A stretch of DNA of 64,000 nucleotides from an uncultured bacterium (GTDB lineage: Bacteria; Patescibacteriota; Minisyncoccia; Minisyncoccales; RBG-13-42-11). A program made the position numbers and the translations under genes. Below are positions 1-61,315 of this stretch, piece after piece; position 1 is the stretch's first letter; each line of letters begins with the position of its first letter. Below the pieces are notes generated by a model, which did no database searches, was not told the origin of the DNA, and saw only the letters and a program-made list of their open reading frames with translations. The stretch is taken from the NCBI GenBank assembly GCA_963790795.1, contig CAWBPO010000001.1, forward strand, positions 268,073 to 332,072, in the 5' to 3' direction.

Positions 1-174
1 TATATATAATTCTGACAATTTTTTTATTTCTAACAAAGAAAAAATTTTATTTCTACGTAGAAAAAAATAAGAATTATCAAAAACATCAAAATACTCATCA
101 TCCAAACGAATCGGGAAGATTTTTTTCATTTTTTCAGTGTCTTCTATTTTTTCAAATTCAACCGTCCATTTCAT
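1..174 (-). CDS. hypothetical protein, N-terminal part only (runs off left edge)
   Basis: Reverse-strand ATG at 174..172 opens a frame that stays open to position 1 (MKWTVEFEKIEDTEKMKKIFPIRLDDEYFDVF...). It is absent from the ORF track because no stop lies in the window. No recognisable motif. Confidence 0.3.
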   Translation of the reverse strand, partial: MKWTVEFEKIEDTEKMKKIFPIRLDDEYFDVFDNSYFFLRRNKIFSLLEIKKLSELYI

Positions 175-320
175 ATCTTTTTTTCGTAATAACTCTATTT
201 TCTATATAAATCAATAGGTTATATCTCACAACATAGATTGTCCGAATAAAAAATCGCTAAAAAGGCGATTCTTTAACTTTGACCTCTTTTTTAATTTCTG
301 ATATATTAAAAAAACGTTCA

Positions 321-893
321 ATGAACAGAGAGTTTTTAATACAATTGACGAACACGCTTTACCGCTTGACTTTGTTTTTTCCGAAAAAAGAGCCTTTGCG
401 GTATAAGATGAGGGAATTGGCTGACAGTTTTTTAATCAAGCCGAATGAGAAAGACTTGGAAGCTTTGGATAGCTTTTTTGATGTAGCTTTGGTTCAGAAC
501 TGGGTAAGTCCTTCTGACATGTTGGCAATTAAGAAAGAATATGCTAATTTGGTTGGAGAGCTGAAAAAGCCAAAACAGGAAAAAAAGAAACCCTCCTTCG
601 CTAAAACTTCGGAGGGCAAGGATAATCCTGTTGTTGTTGAAACTTATCATTCAGACACCGAGCGAATCGAGGTGAAGAAGAGGACGGAGTTCTCTTCGCC
701 CAGGCAGGAAAAGATAATTGAGTTTTTGAAAGAAAACGGCAGAGCCCAGGTTTGGCAGATAAAGCAAATTCTCCCAGATGTCAGTAAAAGAACTTTAAGA
801 CGGGATTTTGAAAATATGCTAGGCAGAGGAAACATTGAAAGAATGGGCGAAAGAAACAATACTTTTTATCAGATTAAGAACATTGAATCCTAG
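321..893 (+). CDS. DNA-binding protein with C-terminal DeoR-type winged HTH
   Basis: ORF 279..893; first ATG at 321 (MNREFLIQ). C-terminus RQEKIIEFLKENGRAQVWQIKQILPDVSKRTLRRDFENML fits the DeoR-family HTH pattern. N-terminal LYRLTLFFPKKEPLRYKMRELA loosely resembles four-helix-bundle (23S-IVS-type) proteins. Confidence 0.55.
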   Translation: MNREFLIQLTNTLYRLTLFFPKKEPLRYKMRELADSFLIKPNEKDLEALDSFFDVALVQNWVSPSDMLAIKKEYANLVGELKKPKQEKKKPSFAKTSEGKDNPVVVETYHSDTERIEVKKRTEFSSPRQEKIIEFLKENGRAQVWQIKQILPDVSKRTLRRDFENMLGRGNIERMGERNNTFYQIKNIES

Positions 894-963
894 ATAGGAC
901 ATACATATATTATAGGTGGTAGGACAGAGTGTCCTACCTTCTGTAAGTTAAAATATATCGGAT

Positions 964-1473
964 ATGGCAAACTATAAAAAAGAATTCGGAAAAATATACG
1001 ACCAGTGCATCAACAAAATATATCGGTTCATATTCTTGAAAGTGAACTCTGAAGACATTGCTCAGGATCTATGTTCAGAAACCTTTTTAAAAGGATGGGA
1101 ATCATACAAAAACAACCCTAAGATTGAAAATCCTTCTGCTTTTTTATATCGGATAGCAAGGAATCTGGTAATTGATCATTATAGGCAAAAGGCTAGGATA
1201 CAGTTTGTTTCCCCTGAAATAGTGCCGATTATTGACCCCAGCCAGGAAATAGAGGCAAAAGCAGCCTTGAATTCCGATATGGACCAAATTAAGATAGTTT
1301 TGGCAGATTTAAAGGAAAGTTACCAGAATATGATTATCTGGCATTATCTGGATCAGTTGTCCATACCGGAAATAGCTAAAATGACAGGAAAAACAGAAGA
1401 TGCCACAAGAGTAATGCTTTGCCGGGCCTTAAAAAATCTTAGAAACGAGATTAACCGCATTCAAACCTCTTAA
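964..1473 (+). CDS. RNA polymerase ECF (sigma-70 family, group 4) sigma factor
   Basis: Region 2 (IYRFIFLKVNSEDIAQDLCSETFLKGW ... FLYRIARNLVIDHYRQ) and region 4 HTH (LSIPEIAKMTGKTEDATRVMLCRALKNLR). Length of 169 aa is typical. Confidence 0.85.
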   Translation: MANYKKEFGKIYDQCINKIYRFIFLKVNSEDIAQDLCSETFLKGWESYKNNPKIENPSAFLYRIARNLVIDHYRQKARIQFVSPEIVPIIDPSQEIEAKAALNSDMDQIKIVLADLKESYQNMIIWHYLDQLSIPEIAKMTGKTEDATRVMLCRALKNLRNEINRIQTS

Positions 1474-1508
1474 GTGTAATAAAACAGGTGATTTTTCGTC
1501 ATAATAGT

Positions 1509-2207
1509 ATGACCGAGAAAGAACTCATTGGCAAAATACAGGAATTGCGCCAAATCAAACCCAGAAAAGACTGGGTTCTTTCTAACAAAGCCATGATTTT
1601 AGGCCCTTCGACAGGACTCAGGGCAAGCGAAAGCACAGGATTATTTTTCTTCCCTTATTTCAAACCAGCCTTAGTAAGCCTGGTTTCTGTTTTTGTCCTT
1701 GTCGGTTTATTCGGTTTTGCTCAAAACTCTTTACCTGGCAATTTCTTATATTCTATAAAAAAGATCACTGAAAAAAGCCAGGCGCTTTTTGTATCGGATA
1801 AAGGAAAAACAGAATTCAGCTTTAATTTAGCTGACAAGAGACTGGAAGAATTAACCAAAATAGCGGAAAACAACCAGGTTAAAAATCTGCCTCAGGCCAT
1901 AAACGAAGTTCAGGCCAGTATTTCTGAAGCAGTCAAGAATTTATCAAACAGTTCAGATACGCAAATGCTTGAAAAGCTGGCTGAATTAGGCAAGAACAAA
2001 CAGAATGCCGAGCAGATTTTAGCCACTCAGATTGATTCTGAAGAATTGGACAATGCTTATAAAAGTTTAACTGAAAACTTAATTAAAGACTTGGAAACAA
2101 GAACATTAACCGAAGAAAAACAGGAGATTTTAAGCCAGATGAAAGAGCTTTTTGAAGCTGGCAATTTTCAGCAGGCTTTGGAGCTTTATCTGGTAAATCA
2201 ACAGTAA
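1509..2207 (+). CDS. membrane-anchored helical protein, candidate anti-sigma factor (DUF5667-like by recall)
   Basis: ORF 1488..2207; first ATG at 1509. One TM segment (LVSLVSVFVLVGLFGF) followed by an extracytoplasmic helical domain. Sits immediately downstream of the ECF sigma gene. Confidence 0.45.
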   Translation: MTEKELIGKIQELRQIKPRKDWVLSNKAMILGPSTGLRASESTGLFFFPYFKPALVSLVSVFVLVGLFGFAQNSLPGNFLYSIKKITEKSQALFVSDKGKTEFSFNLADKRLEELTKIAENNQVKNLPQAINEVQASISEAVKNLSNSSDTQMLEKLAELGKNKQNAEQILATQIDSEELDNAYKSLTENLIKDLETRTLTEEKQEILSQMKELFEAGNFQQALELYLVNQQ

Positions 2208-2305
2208 ATTTGAAAATTCGCGAATCTCGTGACTAATACGTAAGGTCGCGAAGATACAAGGTCGACGCGATTGAGATAAATTATCATTAAATTAAAATTA
2301 TAAAA

Positions 2306-4273
2306 ATGACTAGTTTAACAAAAAAGATTGTAGCAATCGTAACAACAGTTACCTGCGCAGCCTGGATGATCAGTCCTGGAATCGCTTCAGCTTTAACCGC
2401 TGAAGAACTTCAGGCTCAAATCGCTACCTTGACCGCCCAATTAGCTACTCTTCAAAGTGAATTAACAACCTTAACAGGAACAACCGCTGCAGCCGGAACA
2501 CCGGCAGCTTGCGCTGGCATAACCTTTACTGTCAATTTGACAATAGGTTCCACTGGTGCTGATGTTCAATGCCTTCAGGCATTTTTGAACACTAATGCTG
2601 CAACTCAAGTTGCTGCCACCGGGGCAGGTTCTCCTGGAGCAGAAACAATGTACTTTGGTTCTTTAACCCAAGCAGCTGTTTCTAAATTCCAGGCAAACAA
2701 TGCTATTTCACCAACAGCCGGTTTCGTCGGTCCTATAACTCGCGCCAAATTGAACGAGCTGTTGACAACAGCAACTCCGACAGGACTTCCAGCTGGTTGT
2801 ACATCAACCGCTGGCTACAGCCCAACAACGGGTGTGTCTTGTGCCACTGTAACACCGACAACTCCAACAGGAGGCGCAGAGGGTAGCATTTCAGCATTAA
2901 CAGCTGCCACACCGATTACCGGGCAGACTATTTATGCCGGACAGGCTGAAATAGCGATAAATGGCCTTAATATAAAAGCTGTTGGCTCTGACGTATTGGT
3001 CAATCGTATTGACATCAAATTTGTCCAGAGACCATGGCTTTATGTTCCAAAGATTACAATCACTGATGGCACAAACGTCTTAGCCACCTTTGATGTAACT
3101 CAGGCCAGCACCATTGAAGTGACTGTTGGTTCAAATTACGTTGTTCGTATTGAAGGTTTGAACCTCAACATTCCAAAAGACACAACAGTATCTCTTGTTA
3201 TAAAGGCTGATGTTACATTGCCTGTGGGAATATCTGCTAATACAACCATCACTTACCAGGTTCTTGCTAACGCAGTTCGTGGAATTGATGGAGCTGGTTT
3301 GACACAATACGCTCCGCTTGGCAATTTAACCGCAAGAACCTTTATTATAGCGAGAAGTACTGTTGCCCAGCTTGATGTCGCTGCTGCCGCTGACAACCCG
3401 TTAGCCAAAGCAGTTATCATCAGTGAAACAGAAACAACAGAGAATGTTGAAATGTTGAGAGCTAATGTCAAGGCAAAATACAACGATGCTATTATAAGAA
3501 CAGTCGTTGTTGATTTGGTAGACGCTAACAGCAGAATAGGAGCTTTGAAGCTTTATGACGGTTCCACTCTGTTGGCTGCTACAAGCACAGCAGGCTCAGC
3601 CAGTTCTACTTTCACTGACCTTAGCTTGAGAGTTAACAAAGATACTACCAAGACATTGATTGTAAAAGGTGACGTTTTGGCTACCAGCACAGAAGGCTAT
3701 GCAGCTTCAGTTTCCTTACCGGTTACTGTTACTGCAATCGTTGCCGAAGATGCTGGCGATTACACAACAGTTACAACCCTTACTGGTTCAAAGGCTTCAG
3801 GTAATGCAGCTTACTTCTACACTCTAGCTCCGAGCTTGGCTTTGGTTAGCACTGAAATTACAGGAATTCAAGGCACTACAGGAAGCGCTTCACCTCAGCA
3901 AGCACAAGGCAAGATTAAGATCAATGTGACTGCTCAGGGCGGAGACATTTACGTGCCTAAGTACGCTGCCTTAGTAGCTTCTAGCGGTATTTCAGCTAGC
4001 GCTACCGGAAACACAGCAGCATCTCCTACTTGCACTTTCACCAGCAACGCAACCGAGAAAACAAATTCTTGGTTAGTTTCATCCGGTGAAACCAAATGGT
4101 TTGAGGTGTCATGTATGATGACCAGCAGTGGAGCAGCTGCTTTTGCCCGAGCATACTTAACAAACTTCAAGTGGGATATAAGCGACGCAGCAGCAACAAC
4201 GCCTGATCACAACTGGACTTGGGGTCTTGAAACATTCAAGACAAGCGACATCTTCTTGCAGACTAAAGGATAG
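2306..4273 (+). CDS. secreted Thr/Ala/Ser-rich cell-surface protein with N-terminal coiled coil and peptidoglycan-binding (PG_binding_1-like) domain
   Basis: Signal peptide MTSLTKKIVAIVTTVTCAAWMISPGIASA. Coiled coil AEELQAQIATLTAQLATLQSEL. PGB-like GADVQCLQAFLN...YFGSLTQAAVSKFQANNAISPTAGFVGPITRAKLNELL. Followed by a T/P linker and beta-rich repeats. Confidence 0.75.
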   Translation: MTSLTKKIVAIVTTVTCAAWMISPGIASALTAEELQAQIATLTAQLATLQSELTTLTGTTAAAGTPAACAGITFTVNLTIGSTGADVQCLQAFLNTNAATQVAATGAGSPGAETMYFGSLTQAAVSKFQANNAISPTAGFVGPITRAKLNELLTTATPTGLPAGCTSTAGYSPTTGVSCATVTPTTPTGGAEGSISALTAATPITGQTIYAGQAEIAINGLNIKAVGSDVLVNRIDIKFVQRPWLYVPKITITDGTNVLATFDVTQASTIEVTVGSNYVVRIEGLNLNIPKDTTVSLVIKADVTLPVGISANTTITYQVLANAVRGIDGAGLTQYAPLGNLTARTFIIARSTVAQLDVAAAADNPLAKAVIISETETTENVEMLRANVKAKYNDAIIRTVVVDLVDANSRIGALKLYDGSTLLAATSTAGSASSTFTDLSLRVNKDTTKTLIVKGDVLATSTEGYAASVSLPVTVTAIVAEDAGDYTTVTTLTGSKASGNAAYFYTLAPSLALVSTEITGIQGTTGSASPQQAQGKIKINVTAQGGDIYVPKYAALVASSGISASATGNTAASPTCTFTSNATEKTNSWLVSSGETKWFEVSCMMTSSGAAAFARAYLTNFKWDISDAAATTPDHNWTWGLETFKTSDIFLQTKG

Positions 4274-4354
4274 TTTCAGCTTTAACTTTCTTGTAAAGTT
4301 TTCGTTTCTTGCCGAGAATATTCCTTGTGTGTTCTGCGGACAAGACAAAAAGTT

Positions 4355-4380
4355 CCCAGCTTTAAAGCTGGGGCTTTTTG
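4355..4380 (+). terminator. rho-independent terminator after the surface-protein gene
   Basis: CCCAGCTTTAAAGCTGGG perfect hairpin followed by CTTTTTG. Confidence 0.7.
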
Positions 4381-4410
4381 TTTTCTTTGTATTTTGCTAA
4401 AATATTTTTA

Positions 4411-6627
4411 ATGAAATCAATAACCAAGTTTTTGCTGTTTTCCGTATTAATCATCACTCCTTTCTTAAAAGTAGACTCTCTTTACTTTCCCTACGTTTCA
4501 GGGAAAATATATGTTTTCCGGCTTTTGGTAATGCTCGCTTTTTTCTTTTGGGTTTGGCTGATGCTGAAAGAAAGGGAATGCCCCTCGACTTCGCTCGGGG
4601 CAAGCAGCCCAAATTTTAAAAACATTCTGGTAATTGCTTTGGTTTTGTTTTTCTTAGCCCAGGTTTTAGTTTCTTTTTTTAGCGTTGACACTGCATATTC
4701 TTTTTTTTCCAGCATTGAAAGGGGAGAAGGCGTTTTACAGTACGGTTTCTGGCTTTTATATTTTTTAATACTTATTTCCGTTTTAAAAAGAAACCAAGAT
4801 TGGAAAATGCTTTTTTCGATTTTTGTGATTGTCGCTTTTTTGGTTTCTTGCTATTCCTGGCTGAATTTTAGCAGTCAGGGCCAGCTGCAGGGAATTTTCG
4901 GCAATCCCGCTTATTTTGCCTCTTTTTTGCTCTTTGCTATCGGTTTTGCTTTGTTAGTGGTTGAAAGAAAGTTTTTTGAAAGCCGCCTCATAAATAATTT
5001 GTTTATTGCGGCAGCCGGCTTTTTTGTTCTTACTTTAGTTTTTACCCAAATCAGAGGAGCTTATGCCGGACTGGCGGCCGGTGTCTTTCTTTTTTGCCTT
5101 TTATCTGTTTTGTTTTTAAGAAAAGAAAACAAAAAAGCGGCTGTTTTTTGCGGCATTTTACTATTAGTGGGTTTTGGCTCAATCGCTTTGCTTTTTTCCG
5201 CCAGAGAGAGCAATTTCGTTAAAAGCACTCCTCTTTTATCAAGGGTAACTGAGGTAACTAATATCTGGGAAACAGGTTCTACCAGAGAGCGTCTTTTAAC
5301 CTGGGAAATCGCTTTGAAAGCTTTTAAGGAAAAGCCGGTTTTCGGGTACGGTCCTGAGAACTTTGGAGTTGTTTCTAACAAGTATTACGACTACCGGATA
5401 GGCAGGGGAGAAGCCTGGTTTGACAGGGCGCACAACAATGTTTTTGAGATTCTGGCAACAGGCGGCATTATTCTTTTTTCTTTTTATCTTTTCTGGCTGG
5501 CTGCTGCAGCTTTTCTTATCTTTAAAATATATAAAGAGAAAAAACTTCTTTCTTTTCTTTTGGCTTCCCTGTTCTTGGCGTATTTCGTGCAAGGGCTTTT
5601 TCTTTTTGACGTTTTTGCCTCGTATCTCGGCCTTTTTCCGTTTCTGGCGTTTTTGGTTTTTAAATGCAGTTCTTCAAAAGAAGATTTTTCAGAAAGAAGC
5701 AATTTAAAAAGAAATCCTCCTTTGTTTATTTTGATTTTCGTCGGTATTTTTTCTTTTTTCGTCGTTTTTACCTCTTGTTTTTTGCCTTATAAAGCCAATG
5801 CTGCGCTTTTAAACTTTTGTAATTCTACGGAAAACGGCTTTTACAAGGAAGCTGAGCTGTTTTTGGAAGAATCTTTCAAAGTACAGTCGCCATATACTTT
5901 TTGGGAAACAAGAAAAAGGGCTGGCTGGCAATTTTTAAAAATTCTTGATTACGAGGTGGATGAGAATACAACTTCCGGAGACCTTCAGACAGTCAAAGAC
6001 ATTTATGATTTTATTGTTCCTGAACTTGAAGGGCTTGCTCAAAATCGGCCTTCTGAACAGCAGACATATTATCTTTTAGGCAGGATTTACCGTTTGGGTT
6101 CTGAGAAATTAGATAGAAATGATTTGGACAAAGCAGTAGATATTCTTGAAAAAGGATTCGCATATTCTGATTTAAGAGTTGATTATTTCAGTGAATTGGC
6201 CCAGGTTTTGCTTTCTCAGGGAAAATTTGAACAAGGTGAAGCATTGGTCAAGGATTATGTTAACAGGACGCATTTTCAGAATTATTTTCCCTTTTTAACT
6301 TTAGGACATTTTTATTTTGTGGCAGGCAAGTATAATTTAGCATTGGAACAATATGAAAAAGCAAGGGAAGTGGGCTATGATTTTTGTGAGATTGAGGCGG
6401 AATACAGCCGCTATATGACCGTGGCAGAACAAACGCAGGAATACCAAAAAATCGTTGATATGGCTAAAAGGTATTTGGAGGAGAAAGGGCCAGATTCAGA
6501 TACATATTTTAATATTGCTGTCGGCTATTTCAATCTTGAAGAAAAAGAAAAGGCAAAAGAATTCTTTTTGAAAGCTTTGGAACTTGACGCGCAGTACGAG
6601 TCATACCGGCCAATTTTCATTTATTAA
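4411..6627 (+). CDS. O-antigen ligase / O-oligosaccharyltransferase-like (Wzy_C) polytopic membrane protein with C-terminal TPR domain
   Basis: ORF 4378..6627, but 4378-4380 lies in the terminator T-tract, so ATG 4411 (MKSITKF) is preferred. About 12 TM segments. Motifs FTQIRGAYAGLAAGVFLF and WFDRAHNNVFEILATGG are typical of the Wzy_C family. C-terminal TPR-like repeats (ALEQYEKAREV..., AKEFFLKALELDAQ). Confidence 0.8.
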   Translation: MKSITKFLLFSVLIITPFLKVDSLYFPYVSGKIYVFRLLVMLAFFFWVWLMLKERECPSTSLGASSPNFKNILVIALVLFFLAQVLVSFFSVDTAYSFFSSIERGEGVLQYGFWLLYFLILISVLKRNQDWKMLFSIFVIVAFLVSCYSWLNFSSQGQLQGIFGNPAYFASFLLFAIGFALLVVERKFFESRLINNLFIAAAGFFVLTLVFTQIRGAYAGLAAGVFLFCLLSVLFLRKENKKAAVFCGILLLVGFGSIALLFSARESNFVKSTPLLSRVTEVTNIWETGSTRERLLTWEIALKAFKEKPVFGYGPENFGVVSNKYYDYRIGRGEAWFDRAHNNVFEILATGGIILFSFYLFWLAAAAFLIFKIYKEKKLLSFLLASLFLAYFVQGLFLFDVFASYLGLFPFLAFLVFKCSSSKEDFSERSNLKRNPPLFILIFVGIFSFFVVFTSCFLPYKANAALLNFCNSTENGFYKEAELFLEESFKVQSPYTFWETRKRAGWQFLKILDYEVDENTTSGDLQTVKDIYDFIVPELEGLAQNRPSEQQTYYLLGRIYRLGSEKLDRNDLDKAVDILEKGFAYSDLRVDYFSELAQVLLSQGKFEQGEALVKDYVNRTHFQNYFPFLTLGHFYFVAGKYNLALEQYEKAREVGYDFCEIEAEYSRYMTVAEQTQEYQKIVDMAKRYLEEKGPDSDTYFNIAVGYFNLEEKEKAKEFFLKALELDAQYESYRPIFIY

Positions 6628-6689
6628 CGCTTTTTTCTGCTAACCGGGTTTTCAAAATTCTATAATTTGATAATATATATATTGAGCTA

Positions 6690-8387
6690 ATGAAAAGCAT
6701 TTTAAAGGCAAATTTTTTATTTCTCTTTCTTTCTTTTTTAATTTTGGGAAGCGCTTTTGCTGTTGGAGTAAACGCTCAGTCAGAAACAAAGTCTTTCTAC
6801 GTTGAAAGCTCATATGATTTGTACGCCAGAAAAAGTGTTGAAACGGTTTTGGTACGCACTTCCGACAATCTGTATTTCTACGTTGAAAAGCCGTGGTGGG
6901 ATAATCGTTCTTCGGCAGAGCAAAACAATATCAGGGTTGCGCTTTACGATCTGGCAGAGGAATTTAAAAACAAAATCTATCCTGTTTTAACTTCTACTTT
7001 CGGCTCTGAATGGAATCCTGGAATTGACAATGACAGCAGAATCACGGTTTTAATTCATGAAATGGAAAGGGGTGTGGGAGGATATTTCCGCAACCACAAT
7101 GAATACTACAAGCCCCAGGTATACAGCTCAAACGAGGCAGAAATGCTGTATCTTAATTCCCAGTTTATCACCGCTTCCTTTGCTAAGAGCTTTTTGGCGC
7201 ACGAATTCGTTCATTTGATAACTTTCAACCAGAAAGACAGATTGAGGAACATTACAGAGGACGTCTGGCTCAATGAACTAAGAGCAGAGTACGCTCCCAC
7301 TCTTTTGGGATATGATGACATTTACGAAGGATCCAATCTTCAAAAAAGAGTAAATACTTTCTTAAACAATCCCTCTATTTCTCTGATTGAGTGGCAGAAT
7401 GAGGTTGAAAGCTACGGAGTTTTGAACGTTTTCGTCCAGTATTTAGTTGATCATTACGGATTTAAAATTCTGCAGGATTCTCTTTTTTCTTCAAAAGTGG
7501 GCATTGAATCGATAAATTACGCTCTGCAAAGAAACGGCTTTCAGAAGGATTTTTCCCAGATTTTCAGCGATTGGGCAGTAACTGTTTTGGTCAATGACTG
7601 CTCTTTGGGAAGCAGCTATTGTTATAAAAACAGTAATTTGAAGAATTTCAGGATTACTCCAGAAACCAACTTTATTCCGACAACTGCCGAAAGCACCTTG
7701 ATCACTTACAACCAGATTAAGGATTGGTCAGCCAAGTGGCAAAGAATATTCGGTGGTAAAGGAAGCTTAACTTTGAATTTCAGCGGAGGCGTAGGAATCA
7801 ATTTTAAAGTTCCTTATGTTGTTTGCGATTTTGACAACAAATGCTTTGTTAAAATCTTAACTTTGGATAAAGACGGGAAGGGGCAGATATTGATTTCCGA
7901 TTTCAGCTCAAAGTACTTTTCCCTGACTTTGGTGCCCTCTGTCCAGCAAAGGCAGTCAGAGTTTACGGGTAACGGATCTTATTATCCTTTTTCTTTGGAA
8001 ATAAAAACAAGGGAAGTGTCAGGCGATGGCGATGCTTTGATTCAGAGCCTTCTTGACAAGATAGCTTATTTGCAAGCTGAGATTGCCAGAGTACAGGCAG
8101 CCATTAACGCTTTTTTGGCTTCGCAAGGCAAGGAACAAATGAATTTTTCCTCCTGCCAAAGTTTTGGTAATGATCTTTACTACGGAATGAAAAACAGCCA
8201 GGAAGTTTCCTGCTTGCAGCAATTTTTGAAATCCAAGGGTTCCGATATTTATCCTGAAGGATTGGTGACTGGAAACTTTCTTTCTTTGACTTTTACCGCT
8301 GTTCAAAGATACCAGGCAAATAAAGGAATAATCCAGACAGGCTATTTTGGTCCTTTAACAAGAACAGCGGCTAATGCCGAATTATAA
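6690..8387 (+). CDS. secreted gluzincin zinc metallopeptidase with C-terminal coiled coil and peptidoglycan-binding domain
   Basis: Signal peptide. HEFVH zinc motif followed 20 residues later by VWLNELRAEYA, comparable to M1-type HExxH...WLNEGFA. C-terminus LQAEIARVQAAINAF plus SQEVSCLQQFLKSKG...GYFGPLTRTAANA (PGB-like). Confidence 0.7.
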   Translation: MKSILKANFLFLFLSFLILGSAFAVGVNAQSETKSFYVESSYDLYARKSVETVLVRTSDNLYFYVEKPWWDNRSSAEQNNIRVALYDLAEEFKNKIYPVLTSTFGSEWNPGIDNDSRITVLIHEMERGVGGYFRNHNEYYKPQVYSSNEAEMLYLNSQFITASFAKSFLAHEFVHLITFNQKDRLRNITEDVWLNELRAEYAPTLLGYDDIYEGSNLQKRVNTFLNNPSISLIEWQNEVESYGVLNVFVQYLVDHYGFKILQDSLFSSKVGIESINYALQRNGFQKDFSQIFSDWAVTVLVNDCSLGSSYCYKNSNLKNFRITPETNFIPTTAESTLITYNQIKDWSAKWQRIFGGKGSLTLNFSGGVGINFKVPYVVCDFDNKCFVKILTLDKDGKGQILISDFSSKYFSLTLVPSVQQRQSEFTGNGSYYPFSLEIKTREVSGDGDALIQSLLDKIAYLQAEIARVQAAINAFLASQGKEQMNFSSCQSFGNDLYYGMKNSQEVSCLQQFLKSKGSDIYPEGLVTGNFLSLTFTAVQRYQANKGIIQTGYFGPLTRTAANAEL

Positions 8388-8547: not shown

Positions 8548-10575
8548 ATGATTCAAAATAAAAAAATCTTTATCAAAACAATAGTTTCTTTTGTCGGTAC
8601 AGGGCTAGTCGCATTCGCCCTTCTATTTTTCGCTGGCGTTTCTACTATTAAAGCAGCAAACCCTACTATTCAGTTCACCGCCACCAGTTCCAGTGCGGCA
8701 GAATCAGTTACTCCAGCTATTTTAGAATTAACCCTTTCAGTTGCTACGGGCTCTGATGCCACGGTTGACTACGCTTTAACCGGCACAGCCACTGGCGGAG
8801 GAGTAGATTATACTGCAAATGCTACTGGCACAGCTACCATTTCAGCTGGCAATACTACCACCACTGTCTCGATTGTCATTGTTAATGACACGCTTGATGA
8901 AAACAACGAAACCATTATTGTCACCATCTCTAATCCTGCCAATGCTACTTTAGGCACTAATACTGTTTATACTTATACAATTAATGATAATGATACAGCA
9001 CCTACTATTCAGTTTACCGCCACCAGCTCAAGCGCTGCTGAAAGCGTCACTCCAGTTAGTTTAGAGTTTGTTTCGTCAGCAGTTTCTGGTCTGGATGTTA
9101 GCGTTGACTACGCTTTAACCGGCACAGCCACTGGCGGAGGAGTAGATTATACTGCAAATGCTACTGGCACAGCTACCATTTCAGCTGGCAATACTACCAC
9201 CACTGTCTCGATTGTCATTGTTAATGACACGCTTGATGAAAACAACGAAACCATTATTGTCACCATCTCTAATCCTGCCAATGCTACTTTAGGCACTAAT
9301 ACTGTTTATACTTATACAATTAATGATAATGATACAGCACCTACTATTCAGTTTACCGCCACCAGCTCAAGCGCTGCTGAAAGCGTCACTCCAGTTAGTT
9401 TAGAGTTTGTTTCGTCAGCAGTTTCTGGTCTGGATGTTAGCGTTGACTACGCTTTAACCGGCACAGCCACTGGCGGAGGAGTAGATTATACTGCAAATGC
9501 TACTGGCACAGCTACCATTTCAGCTGGCAATACTACCACCACTGTCTCGATTGTCATTGTTAATGACACGTTTGAGGAAAACAACGAAACCATTATTGTC
9601 ACCATCTCTAATCCTGCCAATGCTACTTTAGGCACTAATACTGTTTATACTTATACAATTAATAATAATGATACGTATTACAGTGGCGGCGGGAGTATAC
9701 CATCAACGCCAATTACTGCCACAGGACAAGTAACTGCTACTCCTTCTGCTGGCGGGAAAACAACGTTGACCACTTCAGCAGGCACAACAGCAACAGTTGA
9801 ATTACCGGCAGGAGCCGTAACATTTAATACCGTTATAACAATTCAAGAAGCAGTCACAGGAACCATTGTCATTGGCGCTCCGATTCCAACTGGACAAACA
9901 ATAATCAGCGGTTTTACCGTTACAACAACTGTTGATGGTACGGCTGTTACCAGTAGTTTTTTAAAGAGCGTCACTATAACCGTTACATACACTGACGCCC
10001 AGGTGGCTGGAATTGACGAATCAAGTTTAAAGCTTTATCGCTGGAATGGTACGCAATGGGTTGCCTTAATTTGTACAATCAATACTACTACCAACACTAT
10101 TACTGCTACAACCACTTCTTTTTCCAAGTTTGCCGTAATGACCAGTACTTCAACGACTTCAGCGGTCAAACCTTTAAGTGAAATGAGTATTGCTGAATTG
10201 CAGACTGAAATAGCTAGAATTACTGCTTTAATTACTCAATTGCAAACCCAGATAGCTCAGCTTCAGGGTGGAGTTTCTATTTCTCTTTGCGTTGGTACAA
10301 CCTTTAGCAGGAACCTATCTCAGGAAATGACAGGCAATGATGTTAAGTGTTTACAGTCAATCTTGAACCAGTCAACCGATACCAGAGTAGCTGCTTTGGG
10401 AGTTGGCTCTTCTGGCTATGAGACGACTTACTTCGGCGCTTTGACAAAAGCTGCCGTAATAAAATTCCAGGAAAAATACAAATCTGAAATTTTAACTCCG
10501 GTCGGCTTGAGCGCTGGAACCGGATTTGTCGGCCTTTCTACTAGAGCTAAATTGAACGCTTTATTAGGGAAATAG
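8548..10575 (+). CDS. secreted surface protein with three tandem Calx-beta-like domains, a beta-rich domain, and a C-terminal coiled coil with peptidoglycan-binding domain
   Basis: N-terminal signal/TM. Three repeats of ([18 protein letters not shown]...[18 protein letters not shown]...[19 protein letters not shown]). C-terminus [25 protein letters not shown] plus [12 protein letters not shown]...[14 protein letters not shown]...[15 protein letters not shown]. Confidence 0.8.
8662..9678 (+). repeat. 3 x 339-bp in-frame tandem repeat (113-aa Calx-beta-like unit)
   Basis: Units start at 8662, 9001 and 9340. Units 2 and 3 differ by only a handful of substitutions (e.g. CTTGATGAA vs TTTGAGGAA) and at the last ~15 nt. 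Unit 1 diverges in its first ~100 nt and is then identical. Confidence 0.95.
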
Positions 10576-12439: not shown

Positions 12440-13192
12440 ATGAAAAATAATGTTTCAAAAATCGGAATATTGGGCTATGGAGAAGTGGGCCAAGCGATAG
12501 CCGAGTTTTATGGTTCGGCAGGTTCACCACGAGCAAAAATAAAAGATTTAAAGAGAGATGATGGATTGGAAGGAATTGAAATTTTGCATATTTGTATTCC
12601 TTGGAGTAAGAATTTTATCGGGATCGTAAAAAAGGAAATTAAAAAAACAAGACCAAAGCTTATTATAAATCATTCTACCGTGGCTCCGGGAACGACAAAA
12701 AAAATTGCTTTAGGTTTGCCCAAAGGCTGTATGATCGTTCATAGTCCAATCAGGGGCATGCATCCCCGTTTATATAAAGGGATTAAGCTTTTTGTAAAAT
12801 ATATTGGCGCTGATAACAAAAAAGCAGGAGAAATGGCCAAAAAGCATTTAGAAAGGTTGGGAATAAAAACAAAAGTTTTTTACCCTTCCATAACCACTGA
12901 AGTCGGAAAGCTTTTAGATACTTCATACTATGCTTTATGTATTGCTTGGCACGGAGAAATGAAAAGAATTTGCGATAAAGCTAAAATAAAATTTGACGAA
13001 GCTGTGGTTGATTTCAACAGAACATACAATGAAGGATACAATAAATTGGGCAAGCTGAACGTTATTAGACCCGTTCTTTATCCGCCAAAAGGCGGTATCG
13101 GCGGTCATTGCGTTATTTATAATACAAAAATTATTAGCAAATATCTGAAAAGCAAAGCGTTTGATTTGATTCTTAAATACAAGCAAAAATAA
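12440..13192 (+). CDS. NAD(P)-binding dehydrogenase, short UDP-glucose/GDP-mannose dehydrogenase-like
   Basis: N-terminal Rossmann KIGILGYGEVGQAIA. Central helical region. GGIGGHCVIYNTK resembles the catalytic GGxCxxKD segment. At 250 aa it lacks the usual C-terminal NDP-sugar-binding domain. Confidence 0.45.
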   Translation: MKNNVSKIGILGYGEVGQAIAEFYGSAGSPRAKIKDLKRDDGLEGIEILHICIPWSKNFIGIVKKEIKKTRPKLIINHSTVAPGTTKKIALGLPKGCMIVHSPIRGMHPRLYKGIKLFVKYIGADNKKAGEMAKKHLERLGIKTKVFYPSITTEVGKLLDTSYYALCIAWHGEMKRICDKAKIKFDEAVVDFNRTYNEGYNKLGKLNVIRPVLYPPKGGIGGHCVIYNTKIISKYLKSKAFDLILKYKQK

Positions 13193-56335: not shown

Positions 56336-58009
56336 ATGACCAACGAAGAAATCAATTTTTTTGCTGTAACCACTTTTAGAAACCAAAGGAAAAAATTCGG
56401 GATTAAAACCGATGACAGGCGTCGGCATGTTTATGTTATCGGTAAAACAGGCATGGGTAAAACTTTGATGTTGAGGAATATGGCCCTTCAGGACATCCAG
56501 CAGGGCAAAGGAATCGGTTTCATTGATCCGCACGGCGAGGCAGCTGAAGAATTATTGGACTGTATTCCTTCAAACAGGGTTAACGACGTAATCTATTTTA
56601 ATCCGGCTGACATTGATTATCCGATTGCTTTCAACATTATGGAAAGTGTTGGCGTGGAACACCGGCATTTGGTCGCTTCTGGCTTGATGGGCGTTTTTAA
56701 GAAAATCTGGCCTGATGTTTGGTCAGCTAGAATGGAATACATTTTGAACAATTCAATTTTAGCTCTTTTGGAATATCCAGGAGCCACTCTTTTGGGCGTT
56801 AACAGAATGCTGGCTGATCCTGAATACCGGAAAAAAGTGGTTGAAAAAGTGATGGATCCGGTGGTTAAATCTTTCTGGACCCAGGAATTCGCCAGATACG
56901 CCCAGAGATACGAGGTGGAAGCAACTGCGGCCATACAGAACAAAATTGGCCAGTTCATCTCCAATCCTTTAATCAGGAACATTATCGGCCAGGTAAGGTC
57001 CAGCATTAATATGAGGAATATTATGGATGAAAAGAAGATTTTTATAATGAATATATCAAAAGGAAGAGTGGGAGAAGACAATTCCAGGCTGCTTGGCGCT
57101 CTTTTAATCACCAAGCTTCAGCTGGCAGCCATGTCCAGAGTGGATGTTCCTGAAGAAAAAAGAAATGATTTTTTCCTTTATGTTGACGAATTCCAGAACT
57201 TTGCCACAGAATCATTCACCAATATTTTGTCTGAAGCGAGAAAATACAGGCTGGCTTTGCTTTTGGGGCATCAGTATATTGCCCAGATGGATGAAACGGT
57301 CAGAGACGCGGTTTTCGGCAACGTTGGCACAATTGTCTCTTTCAGAGTCGGAGCGGAAGACGCAGAATATTTGGAAAAAGAATTCGCTCCTGATTTTACT
57401 GCTGAAGACTTGGTCAATTTGCCGAAATACAACGTTTATTTGAAATTGATGATTGATGGGGTTGCCGGTCCTGCTTTTTCGGCAGAAACTTTGTCTCCTT
57501 TACCGGCCCTTGAAAAATCAAACCAGGAAAAAATCATTAAAGTTTCAAGAGAGAGATACAGCACTCCGAGAAAAGTTATTGAAGAAAAAATTGCCAAGTG
57601 GACAGGAATGTTAAATGTTGCGGAAACTCCGATGCAGCCATCTTCCCAGCCCTTGTATGACGCCAAATGCGCTTTGTGCGGCAAATGGACAAAAGTGATT
57701 TTTGAGCCGACTGCTTCCCGTCCCGTTTATTGCAAAACCTGCTTGAAAAAAGTTAAAAAACCTTCTGCTGAAAGGGAAAAACCAGTTTTGCCGGCCAACG
57801 AGCCAGAAAAGAGAAAAGAAGAAAGACCAAGGGTTTCTCTCCAAGAAGCAGTTGGCAAAACGCCTGTTTCTTTTTCTAGCAGAACAACAACTGGAAAAGA
57901 AGAAAAAAGGAAGCCAAGAAAAGAAGTTAATTTGGAAGAATTAAAAAAAACATTAGAAGAATCTTTAAAAGATGTAGAAAAAAAAGATGAAGGGGCTGGG
58001 GGACTTTAA
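56336..58009 (+). CDS. FtsK/HerA/TraD-superfamily P-loop ATPase (type IV coupling-protein-like) with C-terminal CxxC...CxxC zinc ribbon and K/E-rich tail
   Basis: Walker A HVYVIGKTGMGKT, Walker B FFLYVDEFQNFAT, ARKYRLALLLGHQY. Zinc ribbon CALCGKWTKVIFEPTASRPVYCKTC. Confidence 0.7.
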   Translation: MTNEEINFFAVTTFRNQRKKFGIKTDDRRRHVYVIGKTGMGKTLMLRNMALQDIQQGKGIGFIDPHGEAAEELLDCIPSNRVNDVIYFNPADIDYPIAFNIMESVGVEHRHLVASGLMGVFKKIWPDVWSARMEYILNNSILALLEYPGATLLGVNRMLADPEYRKKVVEKVMDPVVKSFWTQEFARYAQRYEVEATAAIQNKIGQFISNPLIRNIIGQVRSSINMRNIMDEKKIFIMNISKGRVGEDNSRLLGALLITKLQLAAMSRVDVPEEKRNDFFLYVDEFQNFATESFTNILSEARKYRLALLLGHQYIAQMDETVRDAVFGNVGTIVSFRVGAEDAEYLEKEFAPDFTAEDLVNLPKYNVYLKLMIDGVAGPAFSAETLSPLPALEKSNQEKIIKVSRERYSTPRKVIEEKIAKWTGMLNVAETPMQPSSQPLYDAKCALCGKWTKVIFEPTASRPVYCKTCLKKVKKPSAEREKPVLPANEPEKRKEERPRVSLQEAVGKTPVSFSSRTTTGKEEKRKPRKEVNLEELKKTLEESLKDVEKKDEGAGGL

Positions 58010-59021
58010 TTTTAAAAATAAAAGAGTTTTGCTCCGATGCGATTTTGACGTTCCTGTGGCAAACGGAGTTATTCTGGACGATTTCAGAATTAAAAAAGCT
58101 TTGCCGACCATACAATATTTGGTTGGAAAGGGAGCTAAACTCATTTTAATGGCTCACTTGGACAGGCCTGAAGGGAAAACAGTTGAAGAACTGAAATTGA
58201 CTCTGGTTCAAAAAAAGTTATCGGAGTATTTGAGTTTATCCGTAATCCAAGCTCAAGACTGCGCAGGTTCTCAGGTTGACAAGCTGGTCAATGAATTGAA
58301 GCCAGGCGAAATATTGCTTTTGGAAAATTTAAGATTCCGCAAAGAAGAAGAGGAAAATGACGATAATTTTTCCAGGAATTTGGCAAAGCTGGGAGATGTA
58401 TATATTAACGACGCTTTTGCCAATTCGCACAGAAACCATGCTTCAATTGTTGGCCTGCCAAAATATCTGCCTTCTGCTGCAGGGATGTTGTTTAAAGAAG
58501 AAGTTGATGCTTTGAGTAGGATAAAAGACAATCCTGAAAGGCCTTTAGTTGCTATTATCGGCGGAGAAAAAGTGGAAACAAAAATGGAATTGGTTGATAA
58601 GATTTCCGAGAATGCTGATTTTGTTCTTATCGGCGGATTGATAAAAGAAGCAATGCAAAAAAACAATATTCAGCTGAAAAATTACCAGAAAATTGTTGAA
58701 CCCGTTAATGATGTCGGCAAAAAAGATATCGGTCCTGAAACCATCAGTCTTTTCAAGGAAAAAATACATTCAGCTAAAACTGTTTTTTGGAACGGTCCTT
58801 TGGGCCAGACCGAAGAAAAAGAATTTACTGTTGGGACCGAAGAAATTGCCAGGGCGATTGTTCAAAGCAAAGCGTTTTCCGTTGTCGGAGGTAGCAATAC
58901 AGTAGAGTTTTTAAGCAAAATCGGCTTGATTGATAAGTTTAGTCATATTTCCACTGGCGGAGGAGCGATGATAGCTTTTTTGAGCGGAGAGAAACTTCCT
59001 GGAATAGAAGCGTTGAGGTAA
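57987..59021 (+). CDS. pgk: phosphoglycerate kinase (compact, 344 aa)
   Basis: KRVLLRCDFDVPV, LILMAHLDRPEG, LLENLRFRKEEE, NDAFANSHRNHAS, FWNGPLGQTEE and HISTGGGAMIAFLSGEKLPGIEAL. Confidence 0.85.
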   Translation: MKGLGDFNFKNKRVLLRCDFDVPVANGVILDDFRIKKALPTIQYLVGKGAKLILMAHLDRPEGKTVEELKLTLVQKKLSEYLSLSVIQAQDCAGSQVDKLVNELKPGEILLLENLRFRKEEEENDDNFSRNLAKLGDVYINDAFANSHRNHASIVGLPKYLPSAAGMLFKEEVDALSRIKDNPERPLVAIIGGEKVETKMELVDKISENADFVLIGGLIKEAMQKNNIQLKNYQKIVEPVNDVGKKDIGPETISLFKEKIHSAKTVFWNGPLGQTEEKEFTVGTEEIARAIVQSKAFSVVGGSNTVEFLSKIGLIDKFSHISTGGGAMIAFLSGEKLPGIEALR

Positions 59022-59165
59022 AAAAAACCGGGGAAACCGAATGAGTCGAAAGAAATAAGCTATGGAGCAAATGAATAACGCATAATAGCCTATCTCACAT
59101 TCGGTTTCCCCGTATGAGGAAAACAGGTACTTCACCCGCTGAACCCCCAAACAGAAAAGTACTAT
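59021..59165 (-). ncRNA. candidate ~145-nt small RNA of unknown class, bounded by its own promoter and intrinsic terminator
   Basis: Minus-strand promoter at 59199..59172. Extended hairpin CGGGGAAACCGAATG (59029..59043) / CATTCGGTTTCCCCG (59098..59112), plus an inner 9-bp stem that needs a G.U pair only on the minus-strand RNA. The minus-strand hairpin is followed by a U9 run (plus-strand A-run 59020..59028). Confidence 0.45.
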
Positions 59166-59171
59166 ATTATA

Positions 59172-59199
59172 ATTATACTCTTTTTAAATAATTTGTCAA
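59172..59199 (-). promoter_or_regulatory. consensus sigma-70 promoter on the minus strand (TTGACA-16 nt-TATAAT)
   Basis: The reverse complement of 59172..59199 reads TTGACAAATTATTTAAAAAGAGTATAAT. Confidence 0.55.
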
Positions 59200-59200
59200 G

Positions 59201-60385
59201 ATGCAAGAAATCAATCCTTCGACTTCGTTCAGGATTAATGGTGAGCGTAGTCGAACCATCAAGAACTTAAAGAAGGCAGCCAGCCGCATTTTAAAAGCAA
59301 TTCAAAAAAAAGAGAGAATTATTCTTTACGGAGATGCTGATTTAGACGGCACAACATCGGTCATTATCTTAAAAGAAACCATCAAGACTTTGGGCGGAAA
59401 TATTTCAGCTTTTTATTTCCCGGATAGAGAAACTGAAGGTTACGGCCTCACTGAAAAAGGCCTTGATTTTTTGAAAAAGGAATCTCCCGCCTTAATAATC
59501 GTTTTGGACTGCGGTATAGGTAACTTGAAGGAAGTGAAATTGGCGAAAAAAATTGGTTTCAAGGTTATTATTGTTGACCATCATGAAACTTTGGACAAAT
59601 TGCCTGAAGCTGAAATAATAGTTGACCCAAAGCAAAAAAGCGACAAATATCCTTTTAAAAAATTAGCTTGTGTCGGGATAGCTTTCAAGCTTTCGGAAGC
59701 CATACTTGGCAAGAAAATGACAGAAAGCCTAAGAAGGAACTTTTTAGAGATGACAGCCATTGCCACTGTCGCTGATATGATGCCGAAAGAATCGGAAAAC
59801 AAGATTTTTATTGAACAGGGACTTTCTTATTTGGAAAGCTCTTGGAGGCCAGGCATCAGAGCTTTTTTGGAATCGTTTAAAGAGTATTCGGACATCAATC
59901 AAAAAGTTTCCAAAATCATTTCAATTTTGAACATTAGGGACGTAAAAGAAAGTCTTCCAGCCAGCTTCAGACTGTTGACATGTTCTTCTCTAGAGAAAGC
60001 AGAGAAAATTATCGGGGAATTGTTGGAAAAATCAGAAGTGAGGAGAGAAAAAATGGAAGAAATGATGGCTGAAGTGGAAAAAAGATTAACGGAAAAAGAA
60101 GAATCGATAATTTTTGAAGGCGATACAATCTTTGAATTGACGCTTATCAGCTCAATTGCTTCGATACTCTGCCGCAAATATCTCAAGCCAGTTTTCCTTT
60201 ATAAAAAGATGGAAAAAGAAAGCCAGGGCACGGTCAGAACGCCAAAAGAAACAAACGGAGTTTCTTTGATGAGGAATTGTTCAGAGCTTTTGCTGACTTT
60301 TGGCGGACATGCTCAGGCAGCCGGTTTCAGGGTAAAAAATGAAAACTTGGAAAAATTTAAAAGTTGTTTAATTAGAAATATATGA
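59201..60385 (+). CDS. DHH/DHHA1 phosphoesterase, RecJ-core-like single-stranded-DNA exonuclease or nanoRNase
   Basis: DHH motifs ILYGDADLDGTTS, VLDCG and IIVDHH. DHHA1 motif FGGHAQAAGF. Shorter (394 aa) than canonical RecJ. Confidence 0.7.
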   Translation: MQEINPSTSFRINGERSRTIKNLKKAASRILKAIQKKERIILYGDADLDGTTSVIILKETIKTLGGNISAFYFPDRETEGYGLTEKGLDFLKKESPALIIVLDCGIGNLKEVKLAKKIGFKVIIVDHHETLDKLPEAEIIVDPKQKSDKYPFKKLACVGIAFKLSEAILGKKMTESLRRNFLEMTAIATVADMMPKESENKIFIEQGLSYLESSWRPGIRAFLESFKEYSDINQKVSKIISILNIRDVKESLPASFRLLTCSSLEKAEKIIGELLEKSEVRREKMEEMMAEVEKRLTEKEESIIFEGDTIFELTLISSIASILCRKYLKPVFLYKKMEKESQGTVRTPKETNGVSLMRNCSELLLTFGGHAQAAGFRVKNENLEKFKSCLIRNI

Positions 60386-60402
60386 ACCTTTGATATTCTT
60401 CT

Positions 60403-60825: not shown

Positions 60826-60829
60826 ATCA

Positions 60830-60855
60830 AAAAATCCGTTAATTAACGGATTTTT
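60830..60855. terminator. bidirectional terminator shared by the RNase HI gene (+) and rnpB (-)
   Basis: Perfect palindrome AAAAATCCGTTAATTAACGGATTTTT with A/T runs on both sides. Confidence 0.65.
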
Positions 60856-60861
60856 AAATAT

Positions 60862-61250: not shown

Positions 61251-61315
61251 ATATTATAATTCTAGCAGAATTGAAAACTTTGTCAAATCTGAAAATTGAG
61301 GTAAAATAATTCATA

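Follow-up and report, generated by a model that had tools for sequence, protein, structure and literature searches.

The window analysed here, a stretch of 64,000 nt from an uncultured patescibacterial genome (GenBank assembly GCA_963790795.1, contig CAWBPO010000001.1 of 538,786 bp, positions 268,073 to 332,072), carries four copies of a 24-nt hairpin module that belongs to a real family spanning many phyla. Its modules are inserted, lie in frame where they fall in genes, are dispensable, and are maintained at the level of DNA. In each module a stem of 4-6 bp, free in sequence, closes a 12-nt loop, L (TCGAC-N4-CTC), that hardly varies; single copies (singlets) also carry a CAAG(C) tail 3' of the stem. 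An earlier note, made from the letters of the window alone, had pointed out three of the copies and had offered either a dispersed palindromic mini-element or a functional mRNA hairpin as the explanation. Exact gaps at orthologous sites, copies in many genomes and genes, and co-varying stems all argue for the first of these. We therefore consider that the units are probably a non-autonomous, miniature mobile hairpin element resembling the repetitive extragenic palindromic (REP) sequences and the small dispersed repeats (SDRs), that is, selfish DNA tolerated by the proteins of its host.

Hairpin units in the window

All four units (Table 1) have their loops closed by perfect stems of 5-6 bp. 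The three copies of the earlier note are where it had placed them, except that the end given for the second was off by one base; its count was too low, since the window holds four units plus one related hairpin insert at 591-620. Units 1 and 2 are singlets, encoding PSTGLRAS within the DUF5667 protein and CPSTSLGAS within the Wzy_C/TPR protein, respectively. Because of a GC microhomology the boundary of unit 1 is ambiguous, and its 24-nt insertion can be placed at 1603-1626, 1604-1627 or 1605-1628. Unit 4 is inverted and directly adjoins unit 3, reading ATGGT-TCGACTACGCTC-ACCAT on the minus strand (59238-59259), so that what had been taken for a third copy belongs, with unit 4, to an inverted doublet (59213-59260). 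This doublet is a 48-nt insertion encoding the peptide NPSTSFRINGERSRTI.

Such an arrangement is not expected by chance. There are only 25 occurrences of TCGAC in the window, both strands counted. The window has four loops TCGAC-N4-YTC on perfect stems of 4 bp or more, versus an expectation of 0.02 and a maximum of one in 200 first-order Markov shuffles of the window, which preserve dinucleotides approximately. The evidence for pairing in the units is comparative, not thermodynamic: folded as single hairpins in their local context (stretches of 37-56 nt), copies 1 and 2 are not unusually stable (z between -0.03 and -1.3). The description of the element as GC-rich also needs qualification. The third copy has a GC content of about 42%, in a window of 38% GC that contains 110 short GC-rich islands, and since such stretches are common, GC content is not the mark of the element. 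The density of units is low, four in 64 kb.

Table 1. Units, host genes and related hairpin features. Coordinates refer to the window, except for the last two rows, where they refer to the locus named.
Feature	Position (strand)	Description
Host gene 1, DUF5667 protein	1509..2207 (+)	Pfam; downstream of ECF-type sigma factor gene (964-1473)
Host gene 2, Wzy_C (O-antigen ligase-like) membrane protein with C-terminal TPR repeats	4411..6627 (+)	Pfam
Host gene 3, DHH/DHHA1 (RecJ-like) phosphoesterase	59201..60385 (+)	Pfam
Unit 1 (singlet)	1603..1628 (+)	Stem GCCCT 1603-1607 / AGGGC 1620-1624; loop TCGACAGGACTC 1608-1619; tail AAGC 1625-1628
Unit 2 (singlet)	4579..4605 (+)	Stem TGCCCC 4579-4584 / GGGGCA 4597-4602; loop TCGACTTCGCTC 4585-4596; tail AGC
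Unit 3 (first doublet half)	59213..59236 (+)	Stem AATCCT 59213-59218 / AGGATT 59231-59236; loop TCGACTTCGTTC 59219-59230
Unit 4 (second doublet half)	59237..59260 (-)	ATGGT 59238-59242; loop 59243-59254; ACCAT 59255-59259
Flanking direct repeat ATCAA, left copy	59210..59214 (+)	Single copy at empty site in relatives
Flanking direct repeat ATCAA, right copy	59258..59262 (+)	
Related 30-nt hairpin insert, second family	591..620 (+)	Stem CCCTCC / GGAGGG; loop TTCGCTAAAACTTC; tail CAAG
Unit cluster with GIY-YIG gene, Sphingomonas parapaucimobilis plasmid NZ_CP155752.1 (L281)	1089-2380	
Unit cluster with GIY-YIG gene, L119	1333-3849	

The units are in-frame insertions

The closest relatives of the window genome are labelled Candidatus Nealsonbacteria and Candidatus Pacebacteria, and comparison with their genes identifies insertions at all three host genes, as had been suspected. 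The closest homologues of the DHH/RecJ-like protein (69-86% identity, 378-383 aa) read MQEIKNLKK where the window protein reads MQEI-NPSTSFRINGERSRTI-KNLKK. In its DNA, the closest relative reads GAA ATC AAG AAC, and the window has the same four codons split by exactly 48 nt; the 48-nt gap is found also in L010 and in about 115 of 120 DHH/RecJ-like homologues. At the DUF5667 site a Nealsonbacteria relative (L009) lacks exactly 24 nt, and the sister genome GCA_016782605.1 (L008) has the element, with its loop altered at three clustered positions. The same distribution holds at the Wzy_C site, where 8 aa (24 nt) are missing from L009 and present in L008. Gaps of exactly 24 or 48 nt in close orthologues mean that the copies are in-frame insertions.

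The inserts are multiples of three and are found in tolerant parts of the proteins. By inspection of the sequences, unit 1 lies in the linker before the hydrophobic segment of the DUF5667 protein, and unit 2 in a short loop of hydrophilic residues that separates hydrophobic segments of the Wzy_C/TPR protein. The doublet insert forms residues 5-20 of the DHH/RecJ-like protein, in its N-terminal tail. An AlphaFold2 model of this protein has a mean predicted local distance difference test score (pLDDT) of 90.3; the score stays under 50 over residues 1-16, and helical structure begins only with residue 23, which places the doublet insert in a disordered tail.

Two other origins were considered and set aside. 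The stems could have been the halves of a pre-existing palindromic target, but the empty sites have no palindrome. Diverged in-frame copies in independent assemblies and isolates exclude a sequencing or assembly artefact.

Distribution of the family

We scanned one genome per GTDB species with the singlet pattern TCGACTTCGCTC-N5-AAGC, leaving the 5' stem unspecified, and obtained at least 120 loci. Among the 123 singlet matches listed, 87 have a perfect stem of 3 bp or more around the loop, versus approximately 1.6% expected in random sequence. The stems are of more than 15 types (CCCT/AGGG, CCCC/GGGG, CACT/AGTG, TGCT/AGCA, GCCGT/ACGGC, GTTTC/GAAAC, GCATC/GATGC, TTCC/GGAA and others). The same matches come from Acidobacteriota, Chloroflexota, Planctomycetota, Cyanobacteria, Patescibacteria, Omnitrophota, Nitrospirota, Verrucomicrobiota, Bacteroidota, Proteobacteria and others, so that the family is represented in more than 10 phyla, cultured isolates included. 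Among the cultivable carriers are Sphingomonas parapaucimobilis YK209, Anabaena sp. WFMT and Flavobacterium sp. W21. A second, stem-agnostic scan of metagenomes for doublets also gave at least 120 loci; nearly all the doublet matches listed have both loops closed by perfect stems of 5-10 bp, very diverse in sequence. This amounts to more than 118 distinct doublets in metagenomes and to hundreds of units across the scans. The wider search that the earlier note had proposed thus found further copies in abundance, in many genomes and in unrelated genes.

The three copies first noticed do share the plus strand and a reading frame giving P-S-T-(G/S)-(L/F)-(R/G). Elsewhere, units are found in both orientations within long open reading frames (ORFs), in several frames and also in intergenic DNA, and therefore the frame common to the window copies is not a rule of the family. 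Depending on the frame, the DNA of the unit is read as PSTSLRAS, RLRSGQA (LRLRSGQA) or FDFAQGK, and on the reverse strand as LSEVEG or ERSRR. In one cultured Sphingomonas the units lie between genes, in the manner of REP sequences, with 5 units in 3 kb. Singlets have a modest bias toward carrying L on the G-rich strand (29 of the 39 loci with |GC skew| >0.03).

Viral contigs yielded only two chance-like matches to the doublet pattern, neither with closing stems. The singlet pattern matched 27 viral loci, 10 of them with stems of 4-5 bp (about 6 distinct sequences) and the rest stemless, and these scans give no sign of phages as the main carriers. A protein database query with the triple-repeat peptide returned 3 weak matches only. 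Literature searches for the DNA motif and for the peptides of the element found no match, although the family may still have been described; searches by topic brought up only background on REP, REPIN and HIP1 sequences.

Doublet anatomy and stem covariation

Doublets have the layout X-A-L-A'-X'-B-L'-B'-X, where L is TCGACTNCGCTC, L' is its complement, and each of the stems A/A' and B/B' has about 4 bp. A short flank, X, stands on both sides as a direct repeat, and the middle of the doublet holds its reverse complement, X'. The loops are separated by a spacer of 10, 11 or 12 nt, and X measures 2, 3 or 4-5 nt, respectively. Doublets of the spacer-12 class add exactly 48 nt and come from low-GC genomes (median GC 0.41), those of the spacer-10 and spacer-11 classes from high-GC genomes. 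The left X equals the right X in 37 of 41 spacer-12 doublets, versus 5.9 when the right flanks are shuffled. X and X' are complementary in 94-95% of cells, with X on both sides, a pattern that fits a guide or a filled-in duplication alike. In tandem arrays of two or three doublets, neighbouring units have one X in common.

In 40 aligned spacer-12 doublets, 94.2% of the cells are paired in hairpin 1 (9 bp) and 95.0% in hairpin 2 (8 bp), compared with 15-60% in slid registers, which served as the control. Every stem pair is changed on both sides somewhere in the alignment (9 of 9 in hairpin 1, 8 of 8 in hairpin 2), which bears out the co-varying stems described in the window, and no more than 9 cells out of 680 hold a G-U pair. 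In an RNA under selection, wobble intermediates are the usual finding. Covariation restricted to Watson-Crick pairs points instead to a process of DNA-level pairing or copying behind the stems. As for folding, the permuted 48-mer has two near-equal structures (z = -4.2): an L:L' hairpin (-11.1 kcal/mol) and a rod (-10.9 kcal/mol), the latter a 12-bp A'X'B:B'XA stem capped by L and L'.

Roughly half of the spacer-12 doublets (24/45) lie inside ORFs of at least 150 aa. Their hosts, named by reading the translated ORFs without a family search, look like Mfd, PriA, formate-THF ligase, two MiaB-like proteins, an aminotransferase, PanE, TsaC, PyrK and a GT2 glycosyltransferase. Three tandem doublet copies are present in the PanE-like ORF and in the GT2 ORF; the loci with such arrays of three are L173, which has the GT2 host, and L211. 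Doublets usually encode x-(P/T)-STSL-x-x-(N/D)-GERSRTI. In their flanks ATYRR is preferred, often as codons for I-K-N, and the N-terminus of the DHH/RecJ-like protein (E-I-K-N) is exactly such a site.

A further group of doublets, with a spacer of 14 nt, has the form GGCT-L-AGCC-AACGTT-GGCT-L'-AGCC and is perfectly palindromic (L161, L162, L166, L172, L174, L176, L183-L185, L215, L236 and others). These doublets lie inside a longer repeat of approximately 66 nt, with conserved and mutually inverted flanks, and do not follow the X rule; many are from one low-GC assembly, VFQS01. They look like a REPIN- or MITE-like derivative of the 24-nt unit (MITE, miniature inverted-repeat transposable element).

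Apparent gain and loss at orthologous sites

Five of the 120 DHH/RecJ-like homologues have an insert at the same site as the window protein. In a neighbour-joining tree, the insert-bearing proteins are scattered, each with closer relatives free of the insert: one protein without the insert is 86% identical to the window protein, and the nearest neighbours of P0114 are insert-free as well. The insert thus recurs at one site in separate lineages. Its flank-centre-flank combination (X/X'/X) varies jointly from one lineage to another: it is ATTAA/TTAAT/ATTAA in L001, L002 and L004, and ATCAA/TTGAT/ATCAA in L003; the latter form is found also in L234 and in hosts unrelated to RecJ, such as the GT2 gene of L173. 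The window doublet insert is identical to those of L001, L002 and L004 at 43-45 of 48 nt. The third codon positions of the insert are identical at 14-15 of 16, versus 17-19 of 40 in the adjacent conserved coding sequence of the same three loci, and therefore the insert is either conserved as nucleotides or recently acquired, not conserved as a peptide.

The DUF5667 site has a different history. A homologue only 55% identical (L280) carries CACT-TCGACAGGGCTC-AGTG-CAAGC at the same place, with the same unusual AGGR loop centre as unit 1 and with A-T in place of a C-G pair of the stem. It has the look of an old, orthologous copy in which the stem change was compensated. In the nearest DUF5667 clade, about ten proteins of 223 aa, the element is precisely absent. 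From these comparisons, both gain and precise loss of elements seem to occur.

The loop of unit 1 in the sister genome deserves separate mention. When L008 (10095-10116) is compared with the window (1603-1624), the three clustered substitutions jointly create a CCCGGG palindrome within the loop, a pattern typical of a single template-switch mutation, not of three independent changes.

A second hairpin insert and other features of the window

The related insert at 591-620, in a HTH_DeoR-like protein, encodes PSFAKTSEGK. It has in common with units 1 and 2 a CCCT...AGGGCAAG shell, and its loop differs. L009 has a gap of 30 nt at this place, and the version in L008 carries an extra 39-nt hairpin with a TTCG tetraloop nested in the loop.

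Other small inserts were seen in homologues of the host proteins. A third insert type, NPPAGGKQE or NQPAGRKQE, occupies another site in the DHH/RecJ-like homologues P0069, P0071, P0073, P0079 and P0101; its DNA in L003 (2560-2585) includes a GC-rich palindrome, CAGCCGGCTGG. This suggests that there are several families of mini-inserts in proteins of the candidate phyla radiation (CPR). The DUF5667 homologues P0138 and P0156 have yet another insert, LLSVSEGGRRRFIF or KLPSASEGGRRKFTF, a few residues downstream of the unit-1 site, and the linker before the membrane segment of these proteins seems to be a hotspot for small inserts.

Elsewhere in the window, a 339-bp tandem repeat (8764-9674; 2.7 copies, 99% identity) lies within a coding region and is probably a recently duplicated surface-protein domain. 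A bacterial RNase P RNA (class A) at 60859-61249 on the minus strand scores 101.8 bits, with an Rfam gathering score of 100, and is on the strand opposite to almost all genes of the window. The GC skew is positive in 30 of the 32 bins of 2 kb, its cumulative value rising almost throughout the 64 kb, and in the stretches whose ORFs were listed (1-7000 and 57500-62000) the long ORFs are all on the plus strand; the window appears to lie within one replichore, with its genes co-oriented. At 56336-58009 there is a TrwB/TraG-like type IV coupling-protein ATPase with a C-terminal treble-clef zinc finger, in a block with PGK, the DHH/RecJ-like gene and RNase H that is syntenic in L001, L002, L004 and L005, all the relatives examined.

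Interpretation and rival explanations

A loop that is near-invariant across phyla, on stems that are free to vary, argues for a sequence-specific factor that acts in trans and reads the loop, and we think that such a factor exists. For the doublet, the complementarity between its centre and its flanks favours a hairpin-dependent, single-strand mechanism like that of the IS200/IS605-RAYT systems, a hypothesis to which we would give appreciable weight, though clearly less than even. When free, the doublet would be a single-stranded dumbbell or circle of 48 nt, with the 12-bp A'X'B:B'XA stem capped by L and L'. The central X' would form base pairs with the target as well as with the 3' end of the element itself, insertion would take place 3' of X, and precise excision would restore a single X. 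In a bolder version, the 48-nt doublet would be mobile by itself, as a complete unit and the smallest known in bacteria, moving as a single-stranded dumbbell or circle and choosing its target by base pairing through its central 4-5 nt. Its driving factor would be conserved all the way from the CPR to the Proteobacteria and would be a housekeeping enzyme of replication or repair, or else a new family of nucleases or recombinases that reads the invariant 12-nt loop. Taken as a whole, we regard this version as speculative and rather unlikely.

Several observations weigh against a mobile element or against the mechanism outlined for it. The presence of the element is patchy and its movement is deduced from the comparison of sequences; such patchiness could also result from old insertions followed by repeated precise loss, and the DUF5667 copy, in a homologue of 55% identity, looks old and orthologous. 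The length of X varies with the spacer class (2, 3 or 4-5 nt), which is unusual for a fixed enzymatic stagger or guide, and most singlets have no flanking repeat (about 10 of 74 have one of 6-7 nt). In the window doublet itself, the centre TTAAT is not the exact complement of the ATCAA flanks; a single later G-to-A change would explain the mismatch. Since intrastrand template switching can keep stems perfect without selection, covariation is no proof that the hairpin is needed. Among 9,736 ORFs in 1.85 Mb of element-bearing loci, the window included, a single-sequence query with E. coli RayT (phmmer, E <=10) found no RayT-like ORF. An all-against-all BLASTP of 3,935 ORFs gave no recurring neighbour family except histidine kinases/response regulators and ABC ATPases. 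The one candidate mobiliser, a GIY-YIG nuclease, was dropped: eight other loci with homologues of it have no unit, and both positive loci had been selected for containing one.

In those two loci, L281 and L119, clusters of 5-7 units within 2.5-3 kb surround the small GIY-YIG nuclease gene; in the Sphingomonas plasmid as in L119, a unit supplies the codons for the C-terminal ALRLRSG of the nuclease. Another small GIY-YIG-like gene, at 12700-13140 of the CPR contig L005, is broken by an in-frame stop (MFFVYILQSE*) when compared with L004; it adjoins a tRNA-like cluster, between a DivIC-domain gene and a release-factor (PCRF/RF-1) gene.

The failure to find an associated enzyme would be no surprise if the replication machinery alone did the copying, the main rival explanation, which we consider possible but unlikely. 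The hairpin would stall the polymerase, and the nascent end X would switch to another copy of the element, copy it and switch back; the element would be a parasite of replication slippage, and the same process would yield tandem arrays, precise deletions and self-correcting stems. Such copying would suit the flanking repeats, which are short, variable in length and microhomology-like, the arrays of two and three in which adjacent units have one X in common, a covariation that is Watson-Crick only and almost without intermediates, and the clustered loop changes of unit 1 in L008, as well as the success of the elements in a genome on a contig of approximately 0.54 Mb. It leaves unexplained a near-invariant 12-nt loop with free stems across distant phyla, and since donor and target must both have X, the origin of new X classes is hard to account for. 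The invariance of the loop could, on the other hand, reflect a DNA site useful to the host, comparable to the REP sequences bound by gyrase or Pol I or to DNA uptake sequences, whose loop would be bound by a housekeeping protein and whose copies would be kept by selection or by biased uptake. The stem preserved in the old DUF5667 copy, the strand bias of the singlets and the REP-like intergenic units of Sphingomonas agree with such a role. We judge it distinctly improbable, given that the copies are dispensable (the closest relatives lack them at all four sites), that the many host genes are unrelated and have no common context, and that the density of units is so low.

A functional mRNA hairpin within coding sequence, serving in processing, stability or protein binding, was the other option of the earlier note and finds less favour still; we regard it as very improbable. 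A conserved loop on a paired stem and the sense orientation of the three window copies would be in its favour, and the doublet, taken as RNA, folds better than its shuffles (z = -2.3). The single hairpins are no more stable than shuffled sequences, however, and close orthologues do without the units. Copies elsewhere are in both orientations to long ORFs, in several frames and between genes, doublets hold both orientations by construction, and G-U pairs are nearly absent. Searches of Rfam found no matching family: at the gathering threshold the window yields RNase P only, and the elements yield nothing credible at E <=10. The opposite possibility, that the peptide is what is conserved, as an ancient PSTxLR-type motif of the host proteins, is refuted by the orthologue comparison, and we give it practically no weight. 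Similar peptides do occur at the same sites in some distant homologues, but not every distant orthologue has one, and the peptide is missing in about 115 of the 120 DHH/RecJ-like homologues, as it is in the nearest relatives of the DUF5667 and Wzy_C proteins. The same DNA is moreover read in other frames (LRLRSGQA, FDFAQGK, and LSEVEG in reverse) and occurs in non-coding DNA, and its third codon positions are conserved, not free.

Likenesses to other known sequences were also examined and rejected. A tRNA-like or T-arm origin of the TGGT...ACCA half does not fit the spacing, and a tRNA scan found none. The resemblance to Tn3 inverted repeats, a 9-nt match confined to one stem class, was judged coincidental. 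Small self-cleaving ribozymes were discarded, as there are no core motifs and no Rfam match.

If the units are mobile hairpin DNA, as we think probable, a single DNA element, read in different frames, would account for thousands of peptides now called hypothetical and of odd inserts in metagenome proteins, among them PSTSLRAS, RLRSGQA, FDFAQGK, LSEVEG and ...GERSRTI, with consequences for annotation, for protein alignments and for the trees of CPR bacteria. An element of 24 or 48 nt with an invariant loop, free stems and a target-matching centre would set a new lower size limit for mobile DNA, and its presence even in a CPR genome on a contig of about 0.54 Mb points to a very widespread mobilising activity. 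Were targeting by base pairing true, that activity would in principle be reprogrammable. The copies in genes also offer a natural experiment on the tolerance of proteins to insertions of 8 or 16 residues.

Comparison with known systems

REP sequences and REPINs are short palindromic repeats that occur as singlets, inverted doublets and clusters; they are widespread, sometimes intragenic, and thought to be non-autonomous mobile DNA (PMC3116915, PMC3733652). They are predominantly extragenic and are mobilised by RAYTs, which are Y1 transposases. The present family resembles them as a short dispersed palindrome (20-40 nt in REPs, units of 24 nt with stems of 4-9 bp here) and in its inverted doublets, represented by 59213-59260 and by the distinct metagenome doublets. 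Most loops of the GTAG and CGTC families are short, and those families are defined by the sequence of both stem and loop (PMC3733652). Here, the 12-nt loop is conserved and the stem is free; the flanks of 74 singlets show no GTAG or CGTC tag, and what is conserved is the loop and the 3' CAAGC tail. Other differences are the absence of a RAYT-like ORF from the element-bearing loci in the single-sequence search, the exact size of 24 or 48 nt, often in frame, with all the window copies intragenic, and the X/X'/X arrangement of flank, centre and flank, which is not described for REPINs.

The SDRs are close in size. Eight families of Nostocaceae, SDR1-8, were reportedly described by Elhai and colleagues in 2008 as sequences of 21-27 nt that fold into hairpins with compensatory changes and have no known transposase; they are said to occur nested, in tandem heptamer repeats and in minitransposons, and to be perhaps the smallest known mobile elements. 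The 24-nt module falls in the same size class and likewise forms a hairpin with compensatory changes, all of its stem pairs co-varying. One of these families, SDR5, shows precise, site-specific insertion into HIP1 (PMC4390886, PMC5861425). The comparison with SDRs was made by description only, and in these terms they differ in being reported from one cyanobacterial subgroup, unlike a family found in more than 10 phyla. The Nostocaceae matches among our loci (L014, L023, L032) could overlap an SDR family.

Rickettsia palindromic elements, which the earlier note had invoked as a precedent, are about 100-150 bp long and restricted to Rickettsia. They are inserted in frame in genes that probably still make functional proteins (PMC3733652), and in this respect the precedent is apt. 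The likeness is otherwise loose, these elements being some five times longer and confined to one genus, compared with 24 or 48 nt, a conserved loop and many phyla here; REP/REPIN sequences and SDRs are closer.

For the proposed mechanism, the IS200/IS605 family provides a working analogy only. Its members have hairpin-defined ends and a 4-nt target paired to an internal guide beside the foot of the hairpin; they insert 3' of the target without true duplication, excise precisely, and pass through a single-stranded circle. No Y1 transposase was found in the element-bearing loci, and X differs in its varying length. In the doublet, the guide would sit between two hairpins and serve both ends, in an element of only 48 nt. 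Doublets also recall MITEs in having terminal inverted repeats (L, L') and short flanking direct repeats. They are smaller, at 48 nt versus the usual 70-300 bp, no parent insertion sequence with matching ends was seen, and the length of the flanking repeat varies with the spacer class. What sets the present family apart from MITEs is also that the centre of the doublet is complementary to its flanks and that one-ended singlets are dispersed as well.

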